Part shown: piece by piece, positions 9,155 to 34,912 of the stretch
Layout of the letters: the number at the start of each line of letters is the position of its first letter
How positions within the stretch are numbered: position 1 is the first letter of the stretch
NCBI GenBank assembly: GCA_030670005.1
Contig: DAOVCL010000002.1
Coordinates: 1 to 34,912, forward strand
Direction of reading: 5' to 3'
Origin: Candidatus Zixiibacteriota bacterium
Lineage (GTDB): Bacteria; SM23-81; DAOVCL01
DNA length: 34,912 nt
Made by a program: the position numbers and the translations under genes
Notes under the pieces: generated by a model
Databases searched by the model: none
What the model saw: only the letters and a program-made list of their open reading frames with translations
Told to the model about the DNA's origin: nothing

Positions 9155-9164
9155 GAATTAAGAA

Positions 9165-9187
9165 CTTAGCGCCCTTCGGGCACTAAG
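9165..9187 (+). terminator. Hairpin downstream of rnfB (possible terminator)
   Basis: CTTAGCGCCC-ttc-GGGCACTAAG is a 10-bp stem with one mismatch. The trailing T-tract is weak. Confidence 0.35.
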
Positions 9188-9208
9188 TTCAAAAGTTGAG
9201 CTTTTCAT

Positions 9209-10207: not shown

Positions 10208-10365
10208 ATGCGCCTGACCGGGGCTCGCACCTAATGTCAAGGGATGGGTTAAGTTTTATGCCACAATAGGGTTGGCGCATCCTGGGGCGCTTTTAGTAAA
10301 GGGAGCAAACGAGCATTTGTGGTTATATTTGGATAGAATTGGGACGAAAATCCAGGAGGTGACCT

Positions 10366-10596
10366 ATCAGGAAATTTCACCAGATCTGGCATATCTGGAG
10401 ACGCATCGGACAGGCTATTGGCGACTGGGTTGCCCGAGTCGTGTTGACGGCTTTCTACTTCACGCTTTTTGCCCCTTTCGGCCTGGGGGTGCGGCTATTG
10501 AGCGACCCACTGGCGATCAAGCGCAAACATAAGGCACATTGGCTGGAACGCACAACCCATGATTTGACCTTGGACGACGCACGGAGGCTCTCCTGA
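10366..10596 (+). CDS. Small hydrophobic protein translationally coupled to the carbamoyltransferase (no canonical start codon)
   Basis: The open frame reads IRKFHQIWHIWRRIGQAIGDWVARVVLTAFYFTLFAPFGLGVRLLSDPLAIKRKHKAHWLERTTHDLTLDDARRLS. Its TGA shares one base with the carbamoyltransferase ATG (TGATG). AGGAGG lies 8 nt before an ATC at 10366, and there is no ATG, GTG or TTG in the frame. I recall similar small proteins upstream of carbamoyltransferases, but have not verified this. Confidence 0.4.
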   Translation: MRKFHQIWHIWRRIGQAIGDWVARVVLTAFYFTLFAPFGLGVRLLSDPLAIKRKHKAHWLERTTHDLTLDDARRLS

Positions 10597-12440: not shown

Positions 12441-12585
12441 ATGTAATGAACCGCACATTTGGAACGTTCCAGAGGGCACATATCTCGCCGGATAACGGCT
12501 GGATTCGACTGCGGCGTATCTCCGTTTCCCCCAGCAAGCTGTGAGGTATCCAGCGGAGGCCTATCATGAAAGCTGGAGATTGAGT

Positions 12586-13626: not shown

Positions 13627-13674
13627 TATAACGATCTTATGTGTCATGTTTTGAAGCTCGAAACAGCACATTGT

Positions 13675-13997
13675 TTGCCTGGACAGCTCTGCTCACTACT
13701 GCCCGCCATGCTACATGCTGATGGTCTACCCCTGGAAGGACGGCCAGGGGGAGCGTAATCCAGGTGGTCACCCATGAGGACGGGACGAGATGCCTGCAGA
13801 GGGTAGGCCAGGGATCGAACCCGCTCTACTACCCCCGATCGAGCTGTTCGATGAAAGAACGGCTTGCCGGTGTTGCTCAACACCAGCTTTAATCTGCGTG
13901 GTGAGCCATTGTCAATACGCCGGAGAACGCGCTGAACACCTTCAGTAAGAACGGCATTGACACGCTACACATGGGTGGGTTTGTGATCAGAAAGTGA
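13675..13997 (+). pseudogene. 3' remnant of a second, diverged carbamoyltransferase gene (multiple frameshifts)
   Basis: The nucleotide sequence is clearly alignable to 12130..12440. One matching pair is catgctgatggtctacc..aaggacggccaggg..gtcaccca..gaacccgctctacta against the corresponding stretch of the intact gene. Another is ttgctcaacaccagctttaatctgcgtggtgagcc against ctgctcaacaccagtttcaacctgcgtggtgagcc. The reading frame is broken. The remnant ends ..TLHMGGFVIRK-TGA. Confidence 0.7.
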
Positions 13998-14008
13998 AGG
14001 GAGGGCAA

Positions 14009-14191
14009 ATGAAAACTTTTATCCGTAGCATGACATCCAAGTTGGACGTGGCGAGGGAATTGTTGGGGTTTCTGTGGCGACGCAAACTGTGGTGGCTGAT
14101 CCCGATGGTCGCAGTGTTGCTGCTCTTCGGTTTGCTGCTGATCTTCGCCTCTGCGTCTGGGATTGGACCATTCATCTATACGCTATTCTAA
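14009..14191 (+). CDS. Small membrane protein, DUF5989-like (usual partner of carbamoyltransferases)
   Basis: MKTFIRSMTSKLDVARELLGFLWRRKLWWLIPMVAVLLLFGLLLIFASASGIGPFIYTLF. GAAGGGAGGG lies before the ATG at 14009. The gene sits directly after the carbamoyltransferase remnant stop. The family assignment is from memory. Confidence 0.65.
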   Translation: MKTFIRSMTSKLDVARELLGFLWRRKLWWLIPMVAVLLLFGLLLIFASASGIGPFIYTLF

Positions 14192-14195
14192 CGAA

Positions 14196-14236
14196 ATATT
14201 TAGGAATTCCCTAAAAATTCCTAAATGACCTGTTAT
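14196..14236. repeat. Variant copy of the ATTT(C/A)GGAATT palindrome, upstream of tatC
   Basis: ATTTAGGAATT (14198..14208), a 7-nt spacer, then AATTCCTAAAT (14216..14226). The right flank gacctgttat is shared with 608..636. Confidence 0.5.
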
Positions 14237-14279
14237 GAGTCCAATATCTGAAATTATCCTTTCCCTCCCCTTTTAGGGT

Positions 14280-15032
14280 ATGGGCCTCTGGCCATTCAAC
14301 GAAAGGAGGGGTGGAACCAAGGAGATGTCCTTTCTGGACCACTTAGAGGAGCTGAGGTGGCGGATCATCAAGTGCTTGGCCTCAATCATCCTTTTAGGGC
14401 TGGTTTCCCTCCTCTTCTCTGAAACGATATTAAATCTGCTCACCCATCCAGTGGTCAACCTCCCACACCCCCCAAAGATAATCTTCCTCTCCCCCACCGG
14501 GATGTTCGTTGTTCGGATCTGGTTAGCCCTGGCCTGCGGGGTAGTCTTAGGCCTCCCCGTCATCTTCTATCAGGTTTGGGCCTTTGTCGCCCCTGGCCTT
14601 TTGGCCAGGGAGAGAAAGTATATTGGAGGGCTGACCCTCTTCTCCACCCTCTTCTTCCTCTTAGGGGCGGCCTTCTCCTATTTCATCATTGTCCCTTATG
14701 GCTTGAGGTTTCTCTTAGGGTTGAGAACCCCCCAGATAGAACCTCAGTTGGATGTAGGGAAATATATCGGCTTCGTCTCCAGGATCATCTTAGCTTTTGG
14801 CGCCGTTTTCCAGCTTCCCATCTTCTCTCTCTTTCTCACCAAGATAGGGATAATATCTCCTCACTTTTTGCGTCAGAAGAGGAGATATGCCCTTGTTCTC
14901 ATCTTCGTCCTGGCCGCCTTCTTAACTCCCCCTGATGCATTTACCCAGGTGGCCATGGCCTTTCCCCTTATCTTCCTTTATGAGCTAAGTATCTTAGTCT
15001 CTGTTTTAGTCAGTAAAAGGGAGGCAAGATGA
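14280..15032 (+). CDS. tatC: Twin-arginine translocase subunit TatC
   Basis: MSFLDHLEELRWRIIKCL..., FLSPTGMF, LAPGL..ERK, FLLGAAFSYFIIVP and LTPPDAFTQ. The start is either 14280 or, more typically for TatC, the ATG at 14325. Confidence 0.88.
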   Translation: MGLWPFNERRGGTKEMSFLDHLEELRWRIIKCLASIILLGLVSLLFSETILNLLTHPVVNLPHPPKIIFLSPTGMFVVRIWLALACGVVLGLPVIFYQVWAFVAPGLLARERKYIGGLTLFSTLFFLLGAAFSYFIIVPYGLRFLLGLRTPQIEPQLDVGKYIGFVSRIILAFGAVFQLPIFSLFLTKIGIISPHFLRQKRRYALVLIFVLAAFLTPPDAFTQVAMAFPLIFLYELSILVSVLVSKREAR

Positions 15033-15871
15033 GATTTGGCTTTCATATCTCCATAGCCGGTGGCCTCTCCAAGGTGCCCCAAAGGGCCACAGCCAAGGGC
15101 TGTGAGACCATACAGATATTCTCTCGCAATCCCAGGGGATGGAATTACTCCCCCCTCCCTCAATTAGAGGTAGAGAAATTCCGCTCCGGGATCTCTCAAA
15201 GGGGAATAGAGCCTGTAGTGGTGCATATGCCCTATCTCCCCAACCTGGCCAATCCTCAACCAGAATCCTACCGCCGATCGTTGGACTCCCTCTGCGAGGA
15301 CCTCCGCCGGGCCGATCTCGTTGGTGCTAAGTATCTGGTCATGCATGTGGGAAGCAGTTTAGGAGAAAGCAAACCCATAGCCATAGAAAGGATCGTCAAG
15401 GGGATCAATAAGGCTTTCCAATTGGTGGAAAATGGGGTCATCCTCCTGCTGGAGAATACGGCAGGGGCAGGAACCGAGATCGGCGATAGGTTTGAATCCT
15501 TTAAGCTCATCTTTGAGGGAATCCTCCCCAAGGAGAGGATAGGGGTCTGTCTGGATACTGCCCACCTATTTGAGGCCGGATATGACCTCTCCTCTACCCA
15601 GGGGCTGGAGAAGGCCCTGAAGGGGTTTGTCCAATTGGTTGGTAGGCAAAGGCTTTACCTTCTTCACCTCAACGACTCCAAGACCCCTTGCGGCTCCAGA
15701 TCGGACAGACACTGGCATATTGGGGAAGGACATATTGGACTGGAGGGGTTTAAAAGAATAGTGAATCATCCAAAACTTCAAGATCTCCCTGGAATAATGG
15801 AGACCCCACGGAAGTCGGAAAAGGACGACCTGAGGAATATGGAGGTGATCAGGGGATTGGTAGATCAGTAA
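15029..15871 (+). CDS. nfo: Deoxyribonuclease IV / AP endonuclease (Nfo family)
   Basis: MRFGFHISIAGGL...CETIQIFSRNPRGW, VVHMPYLPNLA, VMHVGS, LLENTAG, CLDTAHLFEAGYD, LHLNDSK...GSRSDRHWHIGEG. It overlaps tatC by 4 nt. Confidence 0.9.
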   Translation: MRFGFHISIAGGLSKVPQRATAKGCETIQIFSRNPRGWNYSPLPQLEVEKFRSGISQRGIEPVVVHMPYLPNLANPQPESYRRSLDSLCEDLRRADLVGAKYLVMHVGSSLGESKPIAIERIVKGINKAFQLVENGVILLLENTAGAGTEIGDRFESFKLIFEGILPKERIGVCLDTAHLFEAGYDLSSTQGLEKALKGFVQLVGRQRLYLLHLNDSKTPCGSRSDRHWHIGEGHIGLEGFKRIVNHPKLQDLPGIMETPRKSEKDDLRNMEVIRGLVDQ

Positions 15872-15987
15872 AGAGAGGGTAACTCTAAGGATTTGATAAA
15901 AAAGTAAGAAGGGTTCAACAGTTGCTACTGGAGGTTTTACCTTAAATGGCGACTAACCTCGACTAAATTTACGATATCATTCCTTTC

Positions 15988-16362
15988 TTACTCACCTTTA
16001 TCCATTCCACTTCTCAGAGCGAAAACGAATGCTCTCGCTTTTAAAGGTTTATGACCAAGACGTAACTCTGGTTCACCCACTATGGCACTCATGCCAGGTG
16101 TATAGACATTAGCGTTGATTCTGTAACCTCTGCTATCATTATGTAAAACTCTTTTCTCTTTCAATTCTATCCTATAACCGTGATACTCAATTAGTGATAC
16201 CCACCATTTGCATTCGTCATAATCGGCCTGTTCTCTTGTATCAGGATATGTCGGTAGTTCTATGAAATTGTCTGTAGTATCGTTAATTGTGATTACCCTT
16301 TCATTAAAAGCATATGTAGGAACGCTCTTTAAACGTTCGAACTCCTTATCAAAATCAGAGAT
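15988..16362 (-). pseudogene. 5'-truncated ORF of unknown function (open frame without any start codon near its 5' end)
   Basis: A 124-codon open frame reads ISDFDKEFERLKSVPTYAFNERVITINDTTDNFIELPTYPDTREQADYDECKWWVSLIEYHGYRIELKEKRVLHNDSRGYRINANVYTPGMSAIVGEPELRLGHKPLKARAFVFALRSGMDKGE. It runs straight out of a TGA adjacent to the 22-bp tandem repeat. The only Met codons are near the 3' end. Confidence 0.35.
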
Positions 16363-16366
16363 TCAA

Positions 16367-16410
16367 GTTATTCTGGGGACACCATACTGTTATTCTGGGG
16401 ACACCATACT
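16367..16410. repeat. Perfect 22-bp tandem duplication (gttattctggggacaccatact x2)
   Basis: Read directly at 16367..16388 and 16389..16410. Its last 12 nt (ggacaccatact) recur inverted at 16592..16603. Confidence 0.85.
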
Positions 16411-16451
16411 CATTTCTTGAATTAGACATGGCACAAAGCTAAATCATCTAT

Positions 16452-16603
16452 ATGGCAAGAATAGCAAGGATCGTCCCCCTTTTCCCACCCCATATTAGCT
16501 AACGGGCCAAGGGGAGGCTCCAAAACCATCTTCTCAGATGAAGGCTATACAGCCTACAAAAAAACCAGGGAGAAAGCCAAAAAAATAAATGAGTATGGTG
16601 TCC
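16452..16603 (+). pseudogene. IS200-like / REP-associated tyrosine transposase (Y1, RAYT-like) N-terminal stub, frameshifted and 3'-truncated
   Basis: MARIARIVPLFPPHIS-stop is followed, in the +1 frame, by GPRGGSKTIFSDEGYTAYKKTREKAKKINEYGV. This compares with the family N-terminus MARxxRxxxPGxPHHxTQRGNRRQxxFFxDEDYxxYLxLLxExxxKYGV. A 12-bp inverted repeat flanks the stub. It is followed by (tcgaatt)x3. Confidence 0.55.
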
Positions 16604-16630
16604 TCGAATTTCGAATTTCGAATTTCTCCA

Positions 16631-16792
16631 CTATTACTCAGGGTCACATTATAGTTAGCACATTGTCATTTCAAGTGTCATTGCGAGACTTGTCCCGAGC
16701 GCAAGCGAGGGAACCCGACGAAGCAATCTCATAGTCCAAACCTCCATTCAGCGTTTTGGATTGCTTCGCTGCGCTCGCAATGACATGCAATC
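16631..16792 (+). repeat. Long-hairpin 'cattgcgag...ctcgcaatg' repeat element, copy 1
   Basis: It shares the leader attact.tcagg.tcaca.tatagtt.gcacattg..atttcaag.GTCATTGCGAG with 23277..23465. Internal arms are GTCATTGCGAG/CTCGCAATGAC and GAAGCAATC/GGATTGCTTC. Confidence 0.65.
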
Positions 16793-16827
16793 TATTTAGT
16801 GACCTCGGTAGTACCTCCAAATAGTCA

Positions 16828-17637
16828 TCATTTGTGTTCGTAGAGGTGTACATCTTGTTGAGGGAATGGGATGGAGATTCCCTCAGCATCGAACCGCTTT
16901 TTCACATTTTCTGTTGTGTCAAAGTACACATCCCAGTAGTCCTCCGTCTTGACCCACAGGCGAACCACAAAATTTACGCTGCTGTCTGCGAGCTCCTTGA
17001 CGGCGATCATCGAAGCGGGATCCTGCAGGATACGACTATCTTTCTTCACAATATCCTGCAAGACTTGCTTTACCTTCTGGAGGTCATCTGTATAACTTAC
17101 ACCGACTACCAGATCCACACGTCTCGTATCCTTAGCAGAATAATTGATGATGTTGTCTCCCATCAACTTGGCGTTAGGTATAATGACTGTCTTATTGTCT
17201 AGGGTCCTGAGTTGAGTGGTAAAGATATGAATTTCTTCAACAATCCCGGTAGCTCCCGCGCCCTCGATGAAATGACCTACCTTGAACGGACGGAATACGA
17301 TCATAAGAAAGCCAGCAGCGAAATTTGCCAGCCCGCCCTGCAACGCTAAACCGACGGCAAGACCAGCAGCACCGATAACGGCTATAAATGAGGTAGTTTG
17401 AATTCCAAGCTGGGCAAGCGCCGCTATGATGACAAAGGTCAGTAATGCAATGTAGGCCAGATTGCCGACAAAGGAGATAAGAGTAGGGTCTATATTTCTT
17501 TTGATCAGTATTTTCTTTACAAGTTTTCTGATTGCCTTTGCAATCCAGCGGCCAACGATGAGAACAATAATCGCCGCCACAATCTTAAGACCATAGAATG
17601 CTCCCCATTCCTGCAATTTTGCGATGATAGCATCCAT
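16828..17637 (-). CDS. mscS: Small-conductance mechanosensitive channel (MscS family)
   Basis: 269 aa with three N-terminal TM helices. The pore helix is AAGLAVGLALQGGLANFAAGFLMIVFRPFKVGHFIE. The beta domain is GIVEEIHIFTTQLRTLDNKTVIIPNAKL. Confidence 0.88.
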   Translation of the reverse strand: MDAIIAKLQEWGAFYGLKIVAAIIVLIVGRWIAKAIRKLVKKILIKRNIDPTLISFVGNLAYIALLTFVIIAALAQLGIQTTSFIAVIGAAGLAVGLALQGGLANFAAGFLMIVFRPFKVGHFIEGAGATGIVEEIHIFTTQLRTLDNKTVIIPNAKLMGDNIINYSAKDTRRVDLVVGVSYTDDLQKVKQVLQDIVKKDSRILQDPASMIAVKELADSSVNFVVRLWVKTEDYWDVYFDTTENVKKRFDAEGISIPFPQQDVHLYEHK

Positions 17638-17829
17638 AAAATGCCCCCTTCCTGTCTTTGCTATTCATAAATCAGGTATGAGAAAACCGAAAAAAGCATA
17701 AAACTACTAATAAAGCTTCGTTAGGCACAGTTATCCGACCAGATGCGTCTTCCCTTCAGTAGGGTCTTAAGATCTTGGGTGAAACAATAGCTTGGTCTAA
17801 CGAAAATAGACGATCATATCGCTTCGTGA

Positions 17830-17857
17830 ATACAGGGGGGGCTAACCCCCCCTGTAT
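17830..17857 (-). terminator. 12-bp GC-rich hairpin immediately after the lipoprotein gene stop
   Basis: ATACAGGGGGGG-ctaa-CCCCCCCTGTAT. There is no clear U-tract. Confidence 0.35.
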
Positions 17858-18717
17858 CACCTCCTTTTATACTGCGGGTTATTAGGATCTGGCTGATAAG
17901 CTGCCTTGAACCTTATCCAGTTATGACTCTCATCATCGATGCCTGTTATTTGAATCTTTGCGTAGTGGTTATCTCCTGTCCTTACAGCGTAGACATGTCC
18001 CATAAGTGCCTCGATCGAATGGCCAGACTCCGCATAACCATTCGTAGGTGCCTCATCAGCATCGTCCCAATCACTCATGTAACCAATATCCTGAACCTCG
18101 CCCCCGTTTATCCCGTCTATCCACGCACGCACCCCTGCTCCAGGATTGAATCGCTCGCACATTATATCTCCGTCACCTGAGGGGGTATCATAATTGGCAT
18201 CTAAACCAGTACAGTCAACCACGCTGAAATCTGAAAACTCAAACCCTGCCTTTGTCTGGTCAGACTGATAAGCGTAAATAGTTTCCTCACCCGTAGTCTC
18301 ATCCCGTGGAGTATCTTCTATAATATTGCTCGTGTAACTGGTCTTACTCCAGTCATCCATAGAAGCTACCACAAGGAAGGAATATGTAACCCCATTCTGC
18401 AGCCCTTCTATATCCACCCAGATCTGGTCTGCGCATGGGGCATCAACCCCCAGAGAGTCGACCTGAACAAATTGCCCCGGGATAGTCTCCCCTGGATCCC
18501 CTTCATACTCCCCCTCAGCGTAATAAATTCTGTACCCGTTCAGCTCATCCTCGTAGTTACTGCACCACCAGAATAGAGTAACCTTCTCATCTCCTGTTAT
18601 GCTGCTCAACCCAAGAGGTGGAGGAAGTTTGGATGGGGCTACTATTTCTTCCTTCTTGGTACATCCTGAAATCAAAAGTAACAATAACATCCCTGAAACT
18701 GCGAAAATTGATCTCAT
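17857..18717 (-). CDS. Lipoprotein of unknown function (possible Ig/FN3-like N-terminal domain)
   Basis: AGGAGG lies 6 nt before the ATG at 18717. The signal peptide and lipobox are MRSIFAVSGMLLLLLISGC. The track ORF (to 18831) runs in frame into an upstream mscL stub. Confidence 0.6.
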   Translation of the reverse strand: MRSIFAVSGMLLLLLISGCTKKEEIVAPSKLPPPLGLSSITGDEKVTLFWWCSNYEDELNGYRIYYAEGEYEGDPGETIPGQFVQVDSLGVDAPCADQIWVDIEGLQNGVTYSFLVVASMDDWSKTSYTSNIIEDTPRDETTGEETIYAYQSDQTKAGFEFSDFSVVDCTGLDANYDTPSGDGDIMCERFNPGAGVRAWIDGINGGEVQDIGYMSDWDDADEAPTNGYAESGHSIEALMGHVYAVRTGDNHYAKIQITGIDDESHNWIRFKAAYQPDPNNPQYKRR

Positions 18718-18762
18718 ATTGCCTCCTTTTTTATTGCTAATTCGATGGTTTTTTCCCCTCTC

Positions 18763-18831
18763 CCCTATGATTCCCACAGCCAAGTCAACCGGGTTGAGCT
18801 GCGTGGCAAATTCCTTAAACTCTTTTAACAT
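18763..18831 (-). pseudogene. mscL: N-terminal stub of the large-conductance mechanosensitive channel gene mscL
   Basis: MLKEFKEFATQLNPVDLAVGIIG matches the conserved MscL N-terminus M-x-KEFKEFAxRGNVVDLAVGVIIG. It has its own AGGAGGTG RBS. Similarity ends after about 23 codons. Confidence 0.55.
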
Positions 18832-18977
18832 AATGACACCTCCTGTAAAGTTGGTTTGTAGATTTGGGTTTGGTCTGAGTCGCCACGCTATGCCTTATTT
18901 TATATCACCTCCTTTCAACCCCCAGATACTCATCACATTGTTCATCTATTCCTCCTGCCCTCTACCCTATAGGATCA

Positions 18978-19850
18978 TCAGTTCAGCTTGTATGTCAGTC
19001 CCAGTGACAGGGTTTGCTTGAAGCGTCCCCCCAGGTCGACCTCCTTGTCGTAGAGAAGCTGCATATAGAGGTTCACCATCAGGTATTTGGTAATGTTGGC
19101 CGTGAATGTGTTCTCCCAGTTGACATCTGGAGATTTCCAATCGTTATTATTATCATCCGATTCTGAGGAGAACAGTGCCCTAAATACGGTAAGTTTGCTG
19201 GTGTAAGTAATTCGCTCCTGAGCCATTGAAGTCTTGAACCCGGTATCGAATACCAAGCCGCCGTCGTTGCTCGTCTGGGTCTCGCGCTCGTTAGTTAGCG
19301 TATCCACCAGCATATCTCGATTCAGGTGCTGCCTCAGCCCGGCGCCGAAACGAGCAGTCCACTCACGCTTCTCCTCTTTGATCAGAACCTTAGCCACGCC
19401 GAAACTTTCGGTGAAGGTAACCGGATTTAGGAATCGGTTCTTCAATGTGTCGCTAATGTCAAGAAACTGGGTTTCTACCCTACCGGAGGCAAAAGGATCC
19501 ACGAATCCCCCCAAGGTGAAGCGGAGAACCGACTCAAAGTCAATGAGATCAGTCGATTTCATTGGCTTGGCCCAGGCCTTAGTCTCCTTGTCCTGGTTAT
19601 GGGTTTGACCAAAAGAAAGCTTGAGGGTGTTTTTGTTGTGAACCTTGGCATAAAGCTGTTTCTCTGCGAGAGAGTTAGAGTTGAATGTCCAGGAGAGGGC
19701 ACCTACCTCCCCTCCAACCCAATTGTTGCTGTATGCATTCTGCGTCAGCGTGAGGTTAGCGTCAACCGCTATTGTCCAGGGCTCTGCTAAGATGGACAAG
19801 GGCATGGCAATAACCAACACAGCCACCGCTACGATAAACAGATTCCTCAT
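18978..19850 (-). CDS. Outer-membrane beta-barrel protein, DUF3078-like
   Basis: Signal peptide MRNLFIVAVAVLVIAMPLSILA. The motif QNAYSNNWVGGEVGALSW resembles the DUF3078 sNWxxGG block. Alternating beta-strand patterns end in LSLGLTYKLN. The family call is from memory. Confidence 0.55.
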   Translation of the reverse strand: MRNLFIVAVAVLVIAMPLSILAEPWTIAVDANLTLTQNAYSNNWVGGEVGALSWTFNSNSLAEKQLYAKVHNKNTLKLSFGQTHNQDKETKAWAKPMKSTDLIDFESVLRFTLGGFVDPFASGRVETQFLDISDTLKNRFLNPVTFTESFGVAKVLIKEEKREWTARFGAGLRQHLNRDMLVDTLTNERETQTSNDGGLVFDTGFKTSMAQERITYTSKLTVFRALFSSESDDNNNDWKSPDVNWENTFTANITKYLMVNLYMQLLYDKEVDLGGRFKQTLSLGLTYKLN

Positions 19851-20069
19851 TCTCCCCTCCTTTGTCCGATGGTTTTCCTTATCCGCTAAAACTTATTTAT
19901 GTCCGCTATAATTCCATTTTGAAGGATAACTGTCAACCAATACCTTGGTAAACAGTAGTTCGTCCCTTTAAAGCTTGTCTTTCTTCCTCTACTTTAACCA
20001 ACTCTAAAATCACCTTGGGCTTTGCCACTTAAGAGATTAAATCGAAAAGAACTATTACACTACTCTTTT

Positions 20070-20912
20070 CTAAAAGATGCTGAATTTTAGATACCTTTTG
20101 GGGTTTTGCTTGATATCCTTGACCAGGCTATCCAGGTTCTGGCTCAGGCTCTTTAGGTTCTCGTATAGGGCCTCATCCTGGGAGAGCTTCCCCAGGGTTC
20201 CACTTCCCTGCTCCATCCTTCCTGCTATCTCCTTTAAGGAGGAGGATACCTGGGCCAGATTTTCGGTTGCCTCCCTTAAAGAGCCTAAGGTTGCCTCTAT
20301 ATCCTCTCCCTTCAGGCCTGATGATGTCTGGGCAAGGTGGACCAGTAAGGTGTCTAAGGTCTCCCCGTTCTCCTTCAGCCTTTGGGTAAAATCCCTCAGA
20401 TCGCTCAGGCTCCCTTGAATATTTACCCGGGTCTCCTGGCTGAGGACCAATTTCAGCCTGGCCAGGACATCCATCAGGTCTTCCCCCACTGGGCCAACGG
20501 TGGAGGTTAAGGCAGAGAGTGGGGATTCATAGACCCCAGCGATATAATCGCCATCCTTGAGGATCTCAGAGCTCTGCCCCGGCTCAATGGCCATCTCCTT
20601 CCTTCCAAACAGGCTTGAGCTCCTCAACCTGACTATAGAGTCAAAGGGAAGGCGAAGATCAGATTCGATCCGAAGAGGAACTAATACCTCCTCCCCCTGC
20701 AGGGACATCTTCCCTACTCTCCCTACCCCCATCCCCATCACGGTGACCCTATCCCCCTGCATCAATCCGCCAACATTTCTCAGCTTCGTCTTCAGCACAT
20801 ACCTATGTCTCCTTATCGACACCCCTCTGAGGAACATATCCCCTAAGAGGAAGACCAGGAAGGCAATGATGATGGCCATACCAACCTTCGTCTCCGTCTT
20901 AAACCTTCTCAT
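20070..20912 (-). CDS. mlaD: MlaD/MCE-family lipid-transport substrate-binding protein with a coiled-coil tail
   Basis: MRRFKTETKVGMAIIIAFLVFLLG forms the anchor. The MCE domain is LKTKLRNVGGLMQGDRVTVMGMGVGRVGKMSL. GGGGGAAT precedes the ATG at 20912. The gene lies downstream of mlaE and mlaF. Confidence 0.8.
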   Translation of the reverse strand: MRRFKTETKVGMAIIIAFLVFLLGDMFLRGVSIRRHRYVLKTKLRNVGGLMQGDRVTVMGMGVGRVGKMSLQGEEVLVPLRIESDLRLPFDSIVRLRSSSLFGRKEMAIEPGQSSEILKDGDYIAGVYESPLSALTSTVGPVGEDLMDVLARLKLVLSQETRVNIQGSLSDLRDFTQRLKENGETLDTLLVHLAQTSSGLKGEDIEATLGSLREATENLAQVSSSLKEIAGRMEQGSGTLGKLSQDEALYENLKSLSQNLDSLVKDIKQNPKRYLKFSIF

Positions 20913-20975
20913 ATTCCCCCCTTCCATACTTTGAGCTAACCACAAATTGTCTCACTACCGGATCATCTGCACTCA

Positions 20976-21661
20976 TTAGCTCCTCAGCTCCTCCGGGGTT
21001 CCCTCAAACCTAATCACCCCCTGGTGTAGCATAGCCATCCGATCGGCCATCCGAGAAACAACAGCGATGTCATGGGTAACTATAATAGAGGTAACAGACA
21101 GCTTCCGGTTTAGGTAATCAATAAGTTGGTGTATCCTTCCGGCGGTGTGATCGGATCAAGGCCGGTGTTAGGCTCGTCATAGAGGAGGAATTGGGGGTCC
21201 ATAGCTATGGCCCTGGCGAAAGCCACCCTCTTCTTCATCCCTCCGGAGAGCTGGGCGGGGTACTTATCCTCCACCCCTTCTAACCCCACATGGCTCAAAC
21301 ACCAGCCTATTTTTTTTCTTATCTCCTCCTCGGAAATCCTTGTATGCCTCCGTAGACCCAGGCCTACATTCTCATCCACGGTAAGGGAGTCAAATAGGGC
21401 AGAGCCCTGAAAGACCATACCAAATCTCTTCCTTATCTCCACCAATTCCTTATATTTAATCTTGGTTATATCTTGGCCATCAAGGAGAACAGAACCGGAG
21501 TCTGGTTTCAGGAGACCGATTATTATCTTCAAAAGGACGCTCTTTCCACAGCCGCTCTCCCCTATTATGGCCACAGTCTTCCCCTCACTGATCGATAGAT
21601 CAACCCCCCCGAGCACCTGAAGCTCCCCAAAGCTTTTTACCAGACCCATTAGCTCTATCAA
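20976..21661 (-). CDS. mlaF: ABC transporter ATP-binding protein MlaF, apparent frameshift near 21146 (pseudogene or assembly error)
   Basis: The TTG start at 21661 gives MIELMGLVKSFG. Walker A is GESGCGKS, the signature is LSGGMKKRVAFARA and Walker B is FLLYDEPNTGLDPIT. The frame then breaks. The remainder (AGRIHQLIDYLNRKLSVTSIIVTHDIAVVSRMADRMAMLHQGVIRFEGTPEELRS-stop at 20976) is in another frame. Confidence 0.8.
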
Positions 21662-28896: not shown

Positions 28897-29067
28897 GCCA
28901 CAAAGGCACCAAGCCCCAAAGTCTTGATTAAATATAGATTAAGCAAATGTTCACAGGTTAATGCAGAGAAACTGAGTTTAACAAACAGGGGTTCTTATGT
29001 TTAATCTTCTTAGTAATCCTTCGACTTCGCTCAGGACATGCTTGGTGGCTTCGTGGCTAAATTTATG
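28897..29067. repeat. Inverted-repeat (MITE-like) element in the intergenic region
   Basis: GCCACAAAGGCACCAAGC (28897..28914) against GCTTGGTGGCTTCGTGGC (29050..29067): 16 of 18 positions are complementary. Confidence 0.4.
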
Positions 29068-29075
29068 AATAGTTC

Positions 29076-29672
29076 GTGCCAATGAATAAAAAGGCTTTTT
29101 TGTCTATCATACTTTTTCTCATATTAGGGACAGCCTGTAAGAACCCCTTCTCTCTGCGCAAAAGCGAAGAGCCAAAGGGAAAACCGGGCAGGTGGGAGGT
29201 GCCCACTAAGCCTCAAGAGGCCATAAACAATCTGGCCAGGGTCTATAGGGATCAGTCCTTAGTAAACCTTGCCAACTGTCTGGATAAATCCTTTACCTTC
29301 TCCGCCCCAGAGGAGTCCCTCCGTTCCCCCTCTCTCTTTTACAACTGGGAGAAGACCAGGGAAGTAGAGGTCACCAGAGGGATATTCTCTCAGGTGATTC
29401 CGGATTCCCTCTCCATCTTCCTCTCCTTGGAAAAGGATTCCCTGATATCCGATGAGATTTATACTGAGCAGGCAACCCTATATCGGCGCTACTATCTGAT
29501 CGTAGAGGGATCTGCCAACGCCCCCTTACACCATCCTGCCTATGGTCTGGCCTGTTTCAGGTTGATCCTGGGGGATGATAACCTCTGGAGGCTAAGCTTC
29601 TGGAGGGATGAGCCCGTGGAGAGGGATGGGGCAAATAGCTGGGCTGCCCTCAAGATTGAACTTGGCTGGTAG
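29076..29672 (+). CDS. Putative lipoprotein of unknown function
   Basis: MPMNKKAFLSIILFLILGTAC provides a lipobox-like Cys. I recognised no domain. Confidence 0.5.
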   Translation: MPMNKKAFLSIILFLILGTACKNPFSLRKSEEPKGKPGRWEVPTKPQEAINNLARVYRDQSLVNLANCLDKSFTFSAPEESLRSPSLFYNWEKTREVEVTRGIFSQVIPDSLSIFLSLEKDSLISDEIYTEQATLYRRYYLIVEGSANAPLHHPAYGLACFRLILGDDNLWRLSFWRDEPVERDGANSWAALKIELGW

Positions 29673-29692
29673 CGAAACCATATGGGTAGGTC

Positions 29693-29783
29693 GGGGTCAA
29701 GCCTTTAACTGCTAATTACCGTAGGGGGCTGTCAGAGGGGGATACTTAGCAGCGCCTAAATTGGTAATTAAAGGTTTGACCCC
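29693..29783. repeat. 91-bp palindromic element with 16-bp terminal inverted repeats, at the core/cassette boundary
   Basis: GGGGTCAAGCCTTTAA (29693..29708) pairs with TTAAAGGTTTGACCCC (29768..29783) with one mismatch. An internal stem is CTGCTAA/TTAGCAG. Confidence 0.6.
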
Positions 29784-29878
29784 CAACTGTGCTTCGGGTA
29801 GGGATACTGCTCCAGGTACTCCCGGGCGAAAGTGGTTTTGCCCGATCCATTAGGACCGGCAACGACTAAGGCTTGCAC
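29768..29878 (-). pseudogene. 5' fragment of a zeta-toxin-like / AAA P-loop kinase gene, truncated by the palindromic element
   Basis: GGGAGG precedes a GTG at 29878. The product is VQALVVAGPNGSGKTTFAREYLEQYPYPKH (Walker A GPNGSGKT). The frame then reads into the right TIR and stops after 36 codons. Confidence 0.5.
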
Positions 29879-29924
29879 TCTCAATCAACCTCCCACTCGC
29901 CATATGTCTGAGTTCAAGCGCTTG

Positions 29925-30089
29925 TTATGAGGCTTTTTGTTGCTTGATTGCGAAAGACACGACGCGATGATTAGAAGCTTTTTGCCTTCTTCGAGCATCT
30001 TCTACTATATTCTTTATGTTGTAGTTGAATTTCTCGGCATTAGCTTCACGAATTTTTCGAACTTCTTGAACTATAGGATCTTTCCACAT
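29925..30089 (-). CDS. 54-aa protein, conserved small partner of the upstream PIN-like gene (below the ORF-track size cut-off)
   Basis: MWKDPIVQEVRKIREANAEKFNYNIKNIVEDARRRQKASNHRVVSFAIKQQKAS. The ATG lies 1 nt after the PIN-like gene stop. The N-terminal block (DPIVxEVRxxRxxxAxKFNYd) is one I recall from small ORFs in similar pairs, but this is unverified. Confidence 0.5.
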   Translation of the reverse strand: MWKDPIVQEVRKIREANAEKFNYNIKNIVEDARRRQKASNHRVVSFAIKQQKAS

Positions 30090-30090
30090 T

Positions 30091-30567
30091 TTAGTCTTCT
30101 CCCATTAACTCTTCAGGTGTGCAAATAATCGGACATTCATATCCTCTTGATTTGCAAACTGATTTAATTCCGATTGATATTTCAGCATTTGCCAGGTGAG
30201 CGCAGTTCCATGTTAAGAGAAACTGTATGTTGTGAACAGTTGCAATGGCGATGTGTGCAGCATCTGTGGCAGCTTTCTGAGGAATAACACCAGCGTCCAG
30301 AATTGCAGAGGCCAAATCTGTTACATCATCGGTAATATCCAACAGGTCAAATTCAGACAAAATTTCAAGTCTTCTTTGTGATGCTTCTTCGTCCCCTTGC
30401 CCTGTCTCATCAATCACAAACTGCGAAATAAAAATTTCAAAATTATGCCTTCGCTTTTCCCACCATTCATGGGTAATTTGTTGATGTGCAGCAACAATCA
30501 AATCCCTACTTGGTCGGGCAGTCTGATAACTTGGAATTGTGGTTTCTAAATATAGTTTAGCTTTCAT
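30091..30567 (-). CDS. PIN-like domain protein (VapC-like toxin candidate)
   Basis: 158 aa. Acidic residues sit in PIN-like positions: LYLETTI..., VIDETGQGD and ATDAAHIAIATV. WNCAHLAN follows. The C-terminus is CTPEELMGED. Confidence 0.6.
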   Translation of the reverse strand: MKAKLYLETTIPSYQTARPSRDLIVAAHQQITHEWWEKRRHNFEIFISQFVIDETGQGDEEASQRRLEILSEFDLLDITDDVTDLASAILDAGVIPQKAATDAAHIAIATVHNIQFLLTWNCAHLANAEISIGIKSVCKSRGYECPIICTPEELMGED

Positions 30568-30649
30568 GGTTCAGATACTCTTCATCTAAATGTGGCTAAA
30601 TCAAAGTTTATGCTTTCCAGCCTCATAACAATGATTAGGCGACGAGCAC

Positions 30650-30994
30650 TCAATCTTGGAATGCCTCAGGTTCCTCATACAGGTTGAACACAAACCCAAA
30701 AGGATCACGCATATAGCAACAGCCTCCTTTACCCTCCCAGCGGACAACTTCGCACCCTGCTTGGAGAAGCTCTTCTTTTGCTTTCTCTACATTAGGGACC
30801 AGAACTTCCAGGATTGGCCCCATAGAGGCTCCTTGATCAAAGAAGAGGCGAAGGTGCCCAGCTTGAAGCTCGATTGCCTTTCCCTCCTGACCAACCACTT
30901 CGAGTCCCATGACATTCTTGTAAAACTCCACAGCCTGATTAGGGTCCGGAAGCTGTAAACAAACACATCGGCCAAATTTGTAAAGCATGGTCAA
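30650..30994 (-). CDS. VOC-family (glyoxalase/bleomycin-resistance/dioxygenase fold) protein
   Basis: 114 aa. AVEFYKNVMGLEVV...HLRLFFDQ..., LEVLVPNVEKAKEELLQAGCEVV...YMRDPFGFVFNLYE. Confidence 0.8.
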   Translation of the reverse strand: MTMLYKFGRCVCLQLPDPNQAVEFYKNVMGLEVVGQEGKAIELQAGHLRLFFDQGASMGPILEVLVPNVEKAKEELLQAGCEVVRWEGKGGCCYMRDPFGFVFNLYEEPEAFQD

Positions 30995-31018
30995 ACGACT
31001 CCCTTCTCATAGTATGTC

Positions 31019-31092
31019 GCTTAACGGGTGGCTAAGCGGCTGGCAAAGAAGCGCAGCGGATTTGCCAGTCCGACTTCAGCCGATTGTTGTAC
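31019..31092. other. attC-like recombination site
   Basis: gCTTAAC is followed by a 4-nt unpaired spacer. GGCTAAGCGG pairs with CCG(a)CTT(c)AGCC, and CTGGCAAA pairs with TTTGCCAG around the loop GAAGCGCAGCGGA. The site ends with a second spacer and GTTGTac. The extra unpaired bases are all in the right arm. Confidence 0.6.
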
Positions 31093-31268
31093 GCTCTACA
31101 AATTGATCCTTCAGAAATCATGTTATTTTGAACTCAACTTGGATTTGTATTAATCAGTATTTGTGACATTATTTAGTTTTCGCCCGATCTTTCTCTGCTT
31201 CAAAGGATCCCGATAGCATGCTTTTACCTTCTTCCTTTGGTGGTAGTGAAATATTTCTTTCAAGTGAT

Positions 31269-31904
31269 TCATTTTGCAAAAATTAAGGTAGTGTTCTCTG
31301 ATGTTATTTCCTGGCCATGATCTAATAGACCATTGAAAAGAATTTCAATAGCACGAATCATCAATGGATTTTCGGTCTTGATACCGTCTAGTACTACCTT
31401 GTTATCTTGATATCCCAGAAAAGTGCAAAAAAAACCAAATTTCAATGCGGTATTGAGTCCAATCCTGAAATTGTACGGAACAAGATTATCGAAGACATAC
31501 AAGTGAATATTGGGATGTTGCACCAGCAGGTGGCATCTTTCGGGATTTTTAGTAGCCCATTCCTTAAAGGGAATAACATTCACTGCAACAAACACCTCGT
31601 ACCGACCAGTAGCCACAAGCTCTATGATCCTTACGTAAGGATCATAGCTTGGATATCCCCCTGCACCTGACATCAAATAAATTTTGCCTTCTTGGGCGGA
31701 ATCAATGTTGATAAACACTTGCGCAAACAACTGCCGAAGCTGTTGTCTTGAGGAAACACGAGAAAAAGATCTATATACTGAGAACGGAAGGAATTTGTTC
31801 AGATACGATAACAGCCTGGACTTATCGAATAGTACCAAGGATACTAACGCCAAAAGAACTCCAGCTATGAAGCTTGCTATTATGCTTATCGTGAAGGTAA
31901 ACAT
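31269..31904 (-). CDS. Single-pass membrane-anchored protein of unknown function (second gene of the two-gene cassette)
   Basis: 211 aa. The N-terminal TM helix is FTISIIASFIAGVLLALVSLVLF. A ~170-aa soluble domain follows, which I cannot assign. It starts 9 nt after the stop of 31914..33335. Confidence 0.6.
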   Translation of the reverse strand: MFTFTISIIASFIAGVLLALVSLVLFDKSRLLSYLNKFLPFSVYRSFSRVSSRQQLRQLFAQVFINIDSAQEGKIYLMSGAGGYPSYDPYVRIIELVATGRYEVFVAVNVIPFKEWATKNPERCHLLVQHPNIHLYVFDNLVPYNFRIGLNTALKFGFFCTFLGYQDNKVVLDGIKTENPLMIRAIEILFNGLLDHGQEITSENTTLIFAK

Positions 31905-31913
31905 GGTGACACG

Positions 31914-33335
31914 CTAGGCGCAATTATATGTAAGTTTTGTTATAGCGTCAAAAAAAACAGACAGTCGAGCTTTCATATTGTGGTCAATGGTTATATCTAT
32001 TCCATTTCTGAATTGCAAATCGATCCAGGCTTGGAGAATAACCTTCTTTTCCTTTGAGATATGGCAATTACTGAGTTCAATAGACATCTTTTTACACCCT
32101 TCCAATATTTCTTTGATCATTCTTTCACGGATGTGATATCTCTCTAATAGAATTTGCAATTCAGAAAGGGAGTTATCCGCTTTATTCTTCCAAATTGATT
32201 TATAGAAAAAGGCCTTCTCTTTCTCAGAAGAAATGTTTTCTAATAATAACAATGTATAATAACTAAATATTCCCCGCTTAACATCTGAAAATGCATCAAT
32301 TTTTGAAATAATATCATAGTAATCATTCTTGATTTGCCCGAGTTTGGCACAAATCGGATATATCCTAGTCATTAATTCTTTTTCTTCATGATAACCCAAA
32401 TCTGCTAACGCAGCATTCCATATAGTTTGCAAGAAAGATGTTCTCTGATAGCTAAATTCCAGGTAATCATCAATAGAATGGAATTTATTATTGACAAATC
32501 TCTTTGATTGGGCGACTCCAAGATCGAAGCAAATTTTGTTTACTAATTCAGAATTTACTAAATTGAATTGCCTATTATTTATTAATGCTTGCAAGGAGGT
32601 AGAGAATAAAAATAGAGTGATAACATTTTGAGGCAGACCGTTAAGCCCAAGAGCAGTAAGGCGTCCATAGCGTTCCTTTTTATTATCACACACGTTGTCA
32701 AGTATAATAAAAATAGAAAACAGAATTTCCGCAAGGATAGAATATGCTAACGAATTATTGTCACAACAACATAAAAGAAAAGGAATGGCAGATTTAAACT
32801 TGCGATATGGAGTGGCCTGAATGGTATATTTAATAATGGAGTAATTATATATTTCTTTGAATTCTCTTAGACTGGGGCTAATATATGAATAAAATAATGC
32901 AGTAAATATTCTACCAATTTCGTTGGCATAGGACGCTATTGATACTTTTTGTGAGATTCTAAACTTTAGTATAGCAATAAGGGCCTCTAGTACCGTTGCT
33001 TCTGGTATGTGCTCAAGAGATACAAATCTGAGTTCATCAGCCGTATGCGGAGAGTTATTAACTGGAACGCCTACAACAACAGTGCATCTGTAAATCGCAA
33101 CCGTCCAAGTAGCCCTTTCAGCAAAATAAACAAGGCCATCTACAGATATTTCTAAGGTAGTTTCTTCCTTAACTTCGCGTACAAGAGCATCCTGTTCATT
33201 CTCTCCTACTAGCACCTCACCACCAGGAAGTGACCACAACCCGCTCACAAACTCTTCTTCTGAAGACCTTCTCAGCATTAAAACCTCATTAGCGTCATTA
33301 ATTATTAATCCACCCACAAAACGTCTTTTCATCAT
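31914..33335 (-). CDS. Nudix hydrolase fused to a polyprenyl (trans-isoprenyl diphosphate) synthase-like domain with non-canonical Asp-rich motifs
   Basis: The Nudix box GEVLVGENEQDALVREVKEETTL fits Gx5Ex7REUxEExGU except for the last G. The C-terminal ~300 aa carry RKFKS and FIILDNVCDNKKERYG (at the DDxxD..RRG position). They also carry SYQRTSFL (KT position), KLGQIKNDYYDI (GxxFQxxDDxxD position) and DVKRGIFSY. Confidence 0.65.
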   Translation of the reverse strand: MMKRRFVGGLIINDANEVLMLRRSSEEEFVSGLWSLPGGEVLVGENEQDALVREVKEETTLEISVDGLVYFAERATWTVAIYRCTVVVGVPVNNSPHTADELRFVSLEHIPEATVLEALIAILKFRISQKVSIASYANEIGRIFTALFYSYISPSLREFKEIYNYSIIKYTIQATPYRKFKSAIPFLLCCCDNNSLAYSILAEILFSIFIILDNVCDNKKERYGRLTALGLNGLPQNVITLFLFSTSLQALINNRQFNLVNSELVNKICFDLGVAQSKRFVNNKFHSIDDYLEFSYQRTSFLQTIWNAALADLGYHEEKELMTRIYPICAKLGQIKNDYYDIISKIDAFSDVKRGIFSYYTLLLLENISSEKEKAFFYKSIWKNKADNSLSELQILLERYHIRERMIKEILEGCKKMSIELSNCHISKEKKVILQAWIDLQFRNGIDITIDHNMKARLSVFFDAITKLTYNCA

Positions 33336-33410
33336 GGTTCCGTTGTTTATTGGCTATATGGCTATTCAAAATTAAAAAATTAAACCATCTCTTGTATCGA
33401 TTACTTTTAC

Positions 33411-33542
33411 GTACAACGCTTGAGCTCAACCGCCGCCAACAATGCGGAGCAAAGAGCCTGAATGACCTATGAGCGTTTTGTGGGACAATGCATTTCAAGA
33501 ACCGCAACGTTGTTGGCGGTCGGCTGAAGCAACTTGTTAGCG
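33411..33542. other. attC-like recombination site (long form)
   Basis: gtaCAAC...GCTTGAGC/GCTGAAGC...CCGCCAACAA/TTGTTGGCGG, then a long variable loop, ending ...cttGTTAGcg. The track ORF 33298..33507 runs through it and is spurious. Confidence 0.55.
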
Positions 33543-33588
33543 CAAAAACATAACTCTAAGAACTTGTTCCTATTACTTCCCACAGTTG

Positions 33589-34527
33589 TCAAAATGTACG
33601 TTTACCTTTCTTCATCGCATCAATTTTAGCTTTCATTCGACCAATTACTTCGTCGTATGTGCGTAGATAAAGATTGGGAACATCAGATTGAATTTTACGG
33701 ACATCAATTGGATTTACCTCTCCCCTTCGTCCAATGATTACGAACATTTTAGGCCGATAGGCTAATAAACCGTATTTTTCATAGATTGTTTTTCGATTTT
33801 TTTCTTCGTCAAAAAATATGCTGTATTCTCGGAGTTGTGCACAGGCTTCTAATACGGCTGCCGTAAATCTAAGTCTATTTTTCTTTAATACAAATATCTG
33901 TGTTGAGGGAAGTTTCAGTTCGAGCAAATCGGATAATGAACTTTGATCAATTGGCTCTAAGACGAAATCTGGTATAAGCGAATCCCCATCATCTTTGGCT
34001 AAAACTATGTGAGGGTGTGCACTCTTGTATTCATCATTTAAAATAAAATCAGGATTTCTCTCAAAGAAATCTTGAAAATCTTTTTCTTTTGTATTCGTAT
34101 CATTTACCAGCGACTCTAGTTCTTCTACAGCAGTTCGTAACGCCATCGTTTCTGAAGAGGTGATATATAGAATGCTATGAAGATTTTGTTCATCATCAAG
34201 AAACTTATAATTACCATCAGGGCTGAGTGAGACCAGCTTAATCTTGTCACCAAAGAGAGTAAATGCAACAAATTCATGTTCCGGCAATTCTTGTGATTTA
34301 TTATCTTCTTCGGGTTCTTCTTCAGGGTCAATTCCACGAACAACATTCTCAGCCGCTGGACCATTTTTTAATTGGGTCCTTTCAAAGGTGACAACTTCAC
34401 CTTCTTTTAGCGTCTTAAAACCTTCGCCTTTTATAAAACTAAAGTGCACAAACAAATCTTCACCATTTTCATCTGTGATGAATCCATATCCCTTTTTTTC
34501 GTTAAACCACTCTACTGTGCCTTTCAT
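33589..34527 (-). CDS. Cold-shock domain fused to a Shedu-type (DUF4263, SduA-like) PD-(D/E)xK nuclease domain
   Basis: The N-terminus [47 protein letters not shown] is a CspA-type CSD with RNP1/RNP2-like blocks. An acidic linker follows. The DUF4263-like layout is [16 protein letters not shown]...IPDFVL...LLELKLP...AQLREY...[10 protein letters not shown]. Confidence 0.78.
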
Positions 34528-34604
34528 AATCCCTCTTTACATTAAAACCAATTCATTAATAGATTCTGAGCAACATATATTTGGAGTTTGACATTGATGA
34601 GAGA

Positions 34605-34677
34605 GCGCTAACGATCAAGCTCACCTGCCGCTATGGAGCGCAGCGGAATAGCGGTCAGGTGCAGCGCCTTGTTAGAA
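34605..34677. other. attC-like recombination site
   Basis: gcgCTAAC is followed by a spacer. CACCTG pairs with CAGGTG and CCGCTAT pairs with ATAGCGG around the loop GGAGCGCAGCGGA. One extra base sits in the right arm. The site ends with a second spacer and GTTAGaa. Confidence 0.65.
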
Positions 34678-34711
34678 GTTTTTATTTTCTATTGTAAATG
34701 TTTTTTGTTAT

Positions 34712-34906
34712 TCAAAAATATCTACTTTTCTGGAAATTTATTTTTAATTCCTTGTTCACCATTTTACAGTTAGGGCAAATTTTTTCCACTAATCTGTATA
34801 TATAATAAAGGACGTTTCTCTTTTTGCAATTCCGAGTGTATTTACACAGCGGACACTCGGCACAATGTTTAACAGCATCACTAGTTTTGTTTGTATTCTT
34901 ATTCAT
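34712..34906 (-). CDS. 64-aa cysteine-rich (zinc-ribbon-like) protein
   Basis: HCAECPLC...CPNC gives two CxxC pairs. The protein is basic. It is a single-ORF cassette upstream (in minus-strand sense) of the attC-like site at 34605..34677. Confidence 0.45.
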   Translation of the reverse strand: MNKNTNKTSDAVKHCAECPLCKYTRNCKKRNVLYYIYRLVEKICPNCKMVNKELKINFQKSRYF

Positions 34907-34912
34907 TTTATT

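Follow-up and report, generated by a model that had tools for sequence, protein, structure and literature searches.

The integrase-distal part of a very probable integron gene-cassette array in a Candidatus Zixiibacteriota genome

The stretch of DNA analyzed here, called the window, is the entire 34,912-nucleotide (nt) contig DAOVCL010000002.1 of the Candidatus Zixiibacteriota assembly GCA_030670005.1, and the element under study, an array of gene cassettes with attC recombination sites, occupies its right-hand end. Positions 1 to 29.7 kb carry core functions (Rnf complex, carbamoyltransferase, TatC, MscS, Mla, TatD, and KsgA). From 29.5 kb to the window end, the guanine-plus-cytosine (GC) content is 0.33-0.46, as opposed to 0.50-0.58 at 25.5-29 kb, and right of 29.9 kb the long open reading frames (ORFs) of the ORF list are closely spaced and lie on the minus strand only. 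A first-pass annotation, made from the sequence alone, had drawn attention to an A+T-richness beginning near 29.7 kb and to compact minus-strand ORFs, both of which are borne out by these values. In our reading, positions 29924-34912 are very probably the distal portion, far from the integrase, of an array of integron gene cassettes in a bacterial chromosome, with the top strand of the array on the minus strand of the window. Five or more cassettes can be made out up to the contig end, which lies 235 bp past the rightmost attC site (site C) and within the cassette of a 64-amino-acid (aa) ORF. From right to left, the features are the following.

34612-34912, minus strand: partial cassette, the nearest visible to the integrase side; its 5' end runs off the contig
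34712-34906, minus strand: 64-aa ORF with two CxxC pairs, zinc-ribbon-like, the sole ORF of that partial cassette
34606-34677, minus strand: attC site C, 72 nt
33417-34611, minus strand: cassette of a predicted Shedu gene, 1195 bp, starting TTAGCGC, the complement of R'' GCGCTAA of its attC, site B
33589-34527, minus strand: 312-aa ORF with an N-terminal cold-shock domain and a C-terminal SduA/DUF4263 nuclease domain (Pfam, PADLOC)
33411-33542, minus strand: attC site B, 132 nt (model match 33411-33541)
31025-33416, minus strand: two-gene cassette, 2392 bp, with a NUDIX fusion gene and a 211-aa gene
31914-33335, minus strand: 473-aa ORF, a NUDIX and polyprenyl-synthetase-like fusion (Pfam)
31269-31904, minus strand: 211-aa ORF with an N-terminal transmembrane helix and no recognized domain (Pfam)
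31019-31092, minus strand: attC site A, 74 nt (model match 31019-31094)
30629-31024, minus strand: VOC cassette, 396 bp, its attC reduced to a 15-nt remnant
30650-30994, minus strand: 114-aa ORF with a glyoxalase/VOC fold (Pfam Glyoxalase_6, 2.7e-9)
29924-30628, minus strand: toxin-antitoxin-like cassette of at least 705 bp, with a PIN protein and a 54-aa partner
30091-30567, minus strand: PIN-domain protein, 158 aa (Pfam PIN, 3.9e-6)
29925-30089, minus strand: 54-aa partner of the PIN protein
29673-29923, no strand assigned: decayed junction of array and core chromosome, with a P-loop ATPase remnant and a palindromic element

The analysis of the intergenic sequences reveals three G+C-rich imperfect palindromes which, on DNA folding, display outer ..AAC/GTT.. 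boxes, unpaired spacers of 5-6 nt, bulged stems, and a loop. The described features of attC sites include R and L boxes, an unpaired central spacer, extrahelical bases, and a variable terminal structure (PMC4889954). Read on the minus strand, site C consists of R'' TTCTAAC, a 5-nt spacer, 3 bp, a G bulge, 6 bp, an A bulge, 7 bp, and the 13-nt loop TCCGCTGCGCTCC, and its 3' half returns through L' and a 6-nt spacer to R' GTTAGCG, with the crossover G at 34612 (in full, TTCTAAC-AAGGC-GCT-G-CACCTG-A-CCGCTAT-TCCGCTGCGCTCC-ATAGCGG-CAGGTG-AGC-TTGATC-GTTAGCG). The succession of 3 bp, bulge, 6 bp, and bulge is that of the aadB, aadA2, and VIM-2 attCs, and the spacers measure 5 and 6 nt. Site A (R'' GTACAAC, loop TCCGCTGCGCTTC, R' GTTAAGC, crossover G at 31025) follows the plan of site C with one extra bulge. 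Site B (R'' CGCTAAC, R' GTTGTAC, crossover G at 33417) keeps the R/L plan and has a variable terminal structure that is long, and it shares its length class and stem type with two attCs, L017b and L017d, of a metagenome contig described below. The AAC and GTT triplets are able to pair in all three sites, and the flanking RYYY/RRRY positions are partly consensus. As had been noticed at first pass, the sites at 31.0 and 34.6 kb share a loop (GAAGCGCAGCGGA and GGAGCGCAGCGGA on the plus strand), and their stems differ in sequence yet pair in both. The homogeneous attCs of sedentary arrays that had been invoked in the same annotation do not describe this array, whose sites are 72, 132, and 74 nt long and 41-62% identical in pairwise comparison.

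To place these palindromes on a quantitative footing, we used covariance models of our own making. Class 1 integrons of clinical plasmids were located through IntI1, thirteen loci were taken, and attCs were read after aadB, aadA2, aadA16, a DUF1010 cassette, blaVIM-2, aac(6')-Ib4, dfrA5, dfrA14, arr-3, and aac(6')-29a. Model R1 comprises loop-trimmed class 1 attCs with canonical R''/L''/L'/R' pairing, and model R2 is the structure-guided R1 alignment of 17 natural plasmid attCs; the two were built from 10-17 attCs, and the window sequence is in neither. R1 recovers the 17 natural plasmid attCs at 27-82 bits, including the held-out dfrA27 attC at 26.9 bits; site B escaped this model, site A received an E-value of 0.09, and R1 was set aside and replaced by R2. 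Searching the whole 34.9-kb window on both strands with filters off, R2 returned site C at 49.7 bits (E 4.3e-11; 42.3 bits under R1), site B at 31.7 bits (E 3.5e-6), and site A at 25.2 bits (E 2.1e-4), these E-values being rough ones, and no fourth significant site in the window (next best, 11.8 bits, E 0.9). The three matches are co-oriented on the minus strand, lie 2.4 and 1.2 kb apart, and delimit minus-strand ORFs. The covariance check proposed at first pass, made here with an equivalent class-1-based model, places all of them above noise. Overall, the three sites are structurally canonical attCs, far beyond chance. One of the model-building plasmids, pWLK-NDM, carries a class 1 integron (L008, 2526-4646) in which a group II intron (ltrA) sits in the attC region after a yjjG-like cassette; we take this intron to be of the attC-targeting group II type.

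The extra unpaired bases of the folded sites all fall in the right-hand (plus-strand 3') arm; site C has T..6 bp..C there, site A has T/A/C, and site B has T/C/A. Strand choice is directed by the extrahelical bases of the L'' arm, and with the bulges on this arm, the plus strand of the window would therefore be the recombinogenic bottom strand.

The cassette boundaries are further informative with respect to recombination. An integron integrase cuts between the G and the TT of R', and the cassette starts TTRRRY.. and pairs with its own R'' once circular. In the window, R' of site C (GTTAGCGC) is a perfect 8-nt complement of R'' of site B (GCGCTAAC), and R' of site B (GTTGTACG) is likewise a perfect 8-nt complement of R'' of site A (CGTACAAC). 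The match thus extends over 8 nt (5 bases past GTT) across both testable window junctions, compared with only 3-5 nt between the R'' and R' of one and the same site. This observation is further strengthened by nine arrays with 19 consecutive site pairs, across which the identical run past GTT has a mean of 4.0, against 1.0 within a site and 0.93 in random pairs; runs of 4 or more past GTT occur in 63% of the consecutive pairs and in 6.5% of the random ones. The PIN cassette shows an 11-nt match between its start and its own R''. Each cassette begins with the complement of its own R'', which is the footprint of IntI recombination at G/TT. The cassette lengths measured between these crossover points (396, 2392, and 1195 bp) are in keeping with the earlier estimates of 0.4, 2.3, and 1.1 kb.

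Moreover, one of the cassettes can be followed into other arrays. The 54-aa protein belongs to a small cluster whose contigs include L018 and L017, the latter a 9.6-kb JGI contig with seven attC matches on one strand. The pair of PIN and 54-aa genes is present in both with 92-98% protein identity (92% and 98% in L017) and with other neighbors. When the window, L017, and L018 are aligned, homology starts exactly at the G followed by TTATGAGGCT (30629) and stops at R'' AGCCTCATAAC (29924-29934), with unrelated flanks, and the same PIN cassette in L017 and L018 has an intact 84-nt attC of 29.5 bits. Remoter homologs of the pair were found in further attC arrays (L052, L041, L059, and L136). The recurrence of the PIN cassette in unrelated arrays with the same boundaries therefore supports cassette mobility.

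A search pattern derived from site C, L017f (an attC of L017), and the VIM-2 attC located the 72-nt attC type in at least 120 metagenome contigs (L021-L140, JGI/ENA). Gap-free alignment of 87 distinct 72-nt copies shows the L and inner helix to be 95% paired on the canonical structure, with changes on both sides in 10 of the 16 pairs (e.g., GC:44/UA:28, GC:41/CG:33, and AU:35/UA:33); none of 500 shuffles matches the observed pairing values, and pairing falls to 25-44% when the partners are slid. The family consensus is GCCTAACAAGGCGCTGCACCGGACGGC.ATTCCGCTGCGCTCCAT.GCCGCCGGTGAGCTTGGTCGTTAGGC, and three main compensatory stem variants are seen. This larger set of sequences bears out the first-pass remark on stems that are unlike in sequence and still complementary. 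Eight contigs of the family encode IntI1 homologs with 48-54% identity (five near full length, three partial or frameshifted), and the three integrases tested on TIGR02249 scored 395-479 bits against a cut-off of 265. In all eight, the R2 matches are one-stranded, with the integrase at the 5' end of the array top strand; relative to the cassettes, the integrase gene is divergent in some of these contigs and co-directional in the rest. In 100 further contigs, multi-match loci appear one-stranded by eye from the match table. Over 68 nt, site C itself shares 98.5% identity with an attC of contig L066 that lies 2.8 kb from the integrase of that contig. Given an integrase always 5' of the array top strand and minus-strand matches in the window, intI and attI are therefore placed to the right of 34912, as the one-sided bulges had already suggested at first pass. 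The integrase gene beside the family attCs is interrupted in L125 (11598-12515, in-frame stop) and L120 (6081-6939, frameshifted pieces); these are arrays on the way to an attC-site cluster that has no integron integrase (CALIN).

By analogy with the integron family, the plus strand (bottom strand) of each attC would fold into a bulged hairpin when single-stranded, dimers of the IntI tyrosine recombinase would bind the R and L boxes, and the extrahelical bases of the L'' arm would select the strand. Cleavage and strand exchange by IntI would take place at A/AC of AAC, equivalent to G/TT on the top strand. Recombination of attC with attC would excise cassette circles, and recombination of attC with attI would insert them beside the cassette promoter, Pc. 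In this scheme attI, intI, and Pc would be expected right of 34912, with the cassettes read leftwards, and Pc-distal cassettes would be poorly expressed unless they have a promoter of their own. Toxin-antitoxin cassettes usually carry their own promoter.

The distal end of the array shows decay. The attC of the VOC cassette persists as a 15-nt R''/R' remnant, GTCGCCTAATCATTG (30629-30643), fused to the G of the next cassette, and the R'' of this remnant, GTCGCCTAA, matches the expected GTCGCTTAA (the complement of the site A R') at 8 of 9 positions. Left of R'' of the PIN cassette (29924), nothing scores as an attC (at most 6 bits). The first-pass view that attC-like palindromes separate the ORFs stands for 31.0, 33.4, and 34.6 kb, and it does not for these two places, near 30.63 kb and left of 29924. 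Candidate attCs drawn by eye at 30575-30640 and 29855-29927 were rejected as intact sites, likewise at 6 bits or less, and the alignment with L017 and L018 sets the boundary at 30629. The VOC and the PIN/antitoxin cassettes have lost functional attCs and hence would be fixed; without such sites, the distal cassettes would therefore no longer be individually excisable. The toxin-antitoxin pair plausibly stabilizes the array.

Between the array and the core, positions 29768-29884 (minus strand) retain 38 N-terminal codons of a gene for a P-loop (GPNGSGKT) zeta-toxin/AAA-like ATPase, truncated by a palindromic element. This 101-nt palindrome (29688-29788; 30-nt arms, DNA fold z = -3.3) directly follows the stop codon of the 198-aa core gene, is single-copy in the window, and is 80% identical over 50 nt to positions 5223-5272 of the related genome L016, a different place there. 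Its role as an attC or boundary site was ruled out at 3.5 bits, and it is a separate, small lineage-specific palindromic repeat.

The junction is documented in other assemblies as well. L143, an independent 980-nt contig from another sample, spans 28997-29976 at 99.3% identity (7 SNPs, single-nucleotide polymorphisms) and runs from the core 196-aa gene (the 198-aa ORF in its ATG-start form) through the junction and on into the 54-aa gene of the cassette. Segments of the array recur in L001 and L002 at 99.9-100% identity, and both contigs break at or next to attC sites. In a third sample, contig L002 follows the window at 99.9% identity from 33393 down to 29922, where it diverges. Two junction variants thus coexist in the population, each breaking immediately after the R'' box CATAACAA. 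Because L143 spans it, the junction between array and core is taken to be real. Right after the last cassette, L002 carries at 3470-3812 an element resembling a miniature inverted-repeat transposable element (MITE), with perfect 17-nt terminal inverted repeats (AATGGGGACGCTGGTAA and TTACCAGCGTCCCCATT), inside which lie remnants of both the N and the C terminus of an IS200/Y1-type transposase.

The closest species-representative genome, L016, is the metagenome-assembled genome of an uncultured Gemmatimonadota bacterium; the 580-aa protein has 77% identity there, and the KsgA-580aa-196aa synteny is kept. Downstream of the 196-aa gene, L016 has a different low-GC island (12560-21021) of defense-like genes, with a HEPN/MNT pair, radical SAM/SPL-like and DprA-like proteins, a ResIII helicase, and a Schlafen AlbA_2 and HATPase_c_4 protein. 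From these gene contents, the locus downstream of the 196/198-aa gene looks like a variable island hotspot, and with a different, attC-free island in L016, the cassette array is therefore not ancestral to the wider lineage. Two low-GC patches also occur within the core of the window, at 9000-10500 (GC 0.37; ORF 9209-10207 without a Pfam match) and at 12500-14300 (GC 0.42; methyltransferase at 12541-13626); a weak attC-model match in the latter patch (14186-14238, minus strand; E 0.4-1.9) was rejected as noise. Scanning the window for Rfam families and tRNAs gave no match, and promoter and terminator scans were uninformative, with counts at shuffle expectation and no terminator at the attC palindromes.

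Several observations weigh against an integron cassette array. The 34.9-kb contig holds no recombinase or integron integrase, attI, or Pc, and two of the five cassette junctions are without a scoring attC. In L016, the same locus has no attC (R2, 21.7 kb) and no integrase. The attC models are home-made and their calibration was shortened, which makes the E-values rough, with a margin over noise that is still large, and site A was marginal under the first model, R1 (16.2 bits, E 0.09). Set against these points, the three significant attCs, the boundary footprint, and the cassette mobility favor the distal part of a chromosomal integron or a CALIN, the two options already named in the first-pass annotation.

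The alternative that survives best is a sub-case of this cassette-array reading, namely a true CALIN whose integrase was lost or lies elsewhere (through rearrangement or a split mediated by an insertion sequence), so that the cassettes would be unexpressed from Pc and mobilized only in trans; we give it somewhat less than an even chance. It would account for the lack of a tyrosine recombinase in the 34.9 kb, for the two decayed distal attCs, which suggest relaxed selection on recombination, for the ATPase-gene remnant and palindromic element at the junction, and for the MITE-like element right after the last cassette of the L002 variant. CALINs are also common, and 83% have fewer than 6 attC sites (PMC4889954). 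However, the polarity of the array puts the integrase past the contig end, which is 235 bp from the last attC, making its absence uninformative; the three proximal attCs are intact, and the near-identical counterpart of site C in L066 belongs to a complete integron. The exact 58-nt pattern from 34811-34868 is absent from the genome and metagenome contig collections, and no extension past the right end was obtained. The window being all there is of the contig, it does not separate a complete integron from a CALIN, and the balance between the two for this array is roughly even. IntegronFinder (Cury et al. 2016, PMC4889954) applies the term CALIN to at least 2 attC sites spaced by less than 4 kb where no integrase is near, and by that operational definition the array on this contig is one.

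A second alternative, which we regard as very improbable, is an assembly chimera, a foreign cassette array and a chromosome fragment having been fused in silico through a short repeat common to both. The sharp GC drop at the junction would be expected of such an artifact, as would the breaks of L001 and L002, contigs from other samples, at or next to attC sites, and the departure of L002 from the window exactly at 29922; the independent assembly of L143 nevertheless carries the same sequence across 28997-29976. Finally, it is extremely improbable that the palindromes are elements of the repetitive extragenic palindromic (REP) type or bidirectional terminators resembling attCs by coincidence: G+C-rich intergenic hairpins in an A+T-rich region, and another palindromic repeat at 29688-29788 with a relative elsewhere in a related genome, would suit such elements, but no further attC-model site exists in the 29.7-kb core or in the 21.7 kb of L016 (the scattering of palindromes that the first-pass annotation had proposed to look for), the matches are strongly strand-specific, no T-run follows the palindromes and the terminator scan finds none there, the same type of site stands beside integron integrases, and only G/TT recombination accounts for the boundary footprint and for the mobility of the cassettes.

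Within the cassette-array reading, the cargo was examined by domain composition. The 312-aa protein matches Pfam CSD (1.4e-25), SduA_C (PF14082, DUF4263; 1.2e-12), and PADLOC SduA (4.7e-23), and it is a predicted Shedu-type defense nuclease with a cold-shock sensor domain. It shares with Shedu (SduA) the C-terminal DUF4263/SduA_C domain and the single-gene, cassette-sized format, and it differs in its N-terminal cold-shock (OB-fold) domain. Shedu is the second most frequent known defense system in integron cassettes (bioRxiv 10.1101/2024.07.02.601686). In the two-gene cassette, between whose genes the covariance model R2 finds no attC, the NUDIX part of the 473-aa protein matches the PADLOC candidate PDC-S07 (3.6e-15). 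A word-indexed protein search returned only 3 homologs of the NUDIX fusion, and the NUDIX fusion and 211-aa genes are adjacent again in L141 (7998-10102) and L142 (159-2067), unrelated contigs without attC, at 34-45% identity. That this NUDIX/isoprenoid-synthase-like and 211-aa membrane-anchored pair is an uncharacterized anti-phage or stress-response system traveling as a cassette is a speculative and rather unlikely proposition. The 64-aa Cys-rich protein has no Pfam, NCBIfam, or PADLOC match, and the exact protein is without another record under any start tried.

Overall, the locus adds one more environmental integron cassette array; integrons are a known system whose understanding it leaves unchanged, and its use is as a source of annotation and candidate genes. 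With an attC type common to at least 120 metagenome contigs, the cassettes of this community appear to be drawn from a cosmopolitan pool. The Shedu variant and the uncharacterized two-gene module match the way in which integrons have recently come to be seen, as reservoirs of compact defense systems. The points of value are the cold-shock-domain Shedu variant, the conserved NUDIX two-gene module, and the kinship of the environmental attC family to the blaVIM-2 attC.

Compared with known systems, the array shares with CALIN and chromosomal arrays (PMC4889954) co-oriented attCs less than 4 kb apart, the absence of an integrase on the available sequence, and cassettes of unknown or non-resistance function, whereas its integrase-proximal side is cut by the contig end and the attCs of its two distal junctions are degenerate. 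With the sedentary superintegron type of Vibrio cholerae, it has in common a chromosomal location, a toxin-antitoxin cassette, and defense cargo. It differs from that type in its heterogeneous attCs, as opposed to the near-identical repeats there, in that only five or more cassettes are visible, and in that the nearest relative has a different island at the locus. The closest likeness of detail is to the blaVIM-2 attC (L003, 4337-4408; GCATAAC-ATGAA-GTT-G-CAGCCG-A-CCATCAC-TCCGCTGCGCTCC-GTTCTGG-CGGCTG-AAC-TTCGGC-GTTAGAT), which, like site C, is 72 nt long with the segmentation 7+5+3+1+6+1+7+13+7+6+3+6+7, the same spacers, the two bulge positions, and an identical 13-nt loop. The two differ in their stem sequences, in a compensatory manner, and in cargo and host, and the array described here has no intI1 or qacEdelta1/sul1 backbone. 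Both attCs are members of the cosmopolitan environmental attC family or resemble it, which may provide a pointer to the environmental source of the blaVIM-2 attC.

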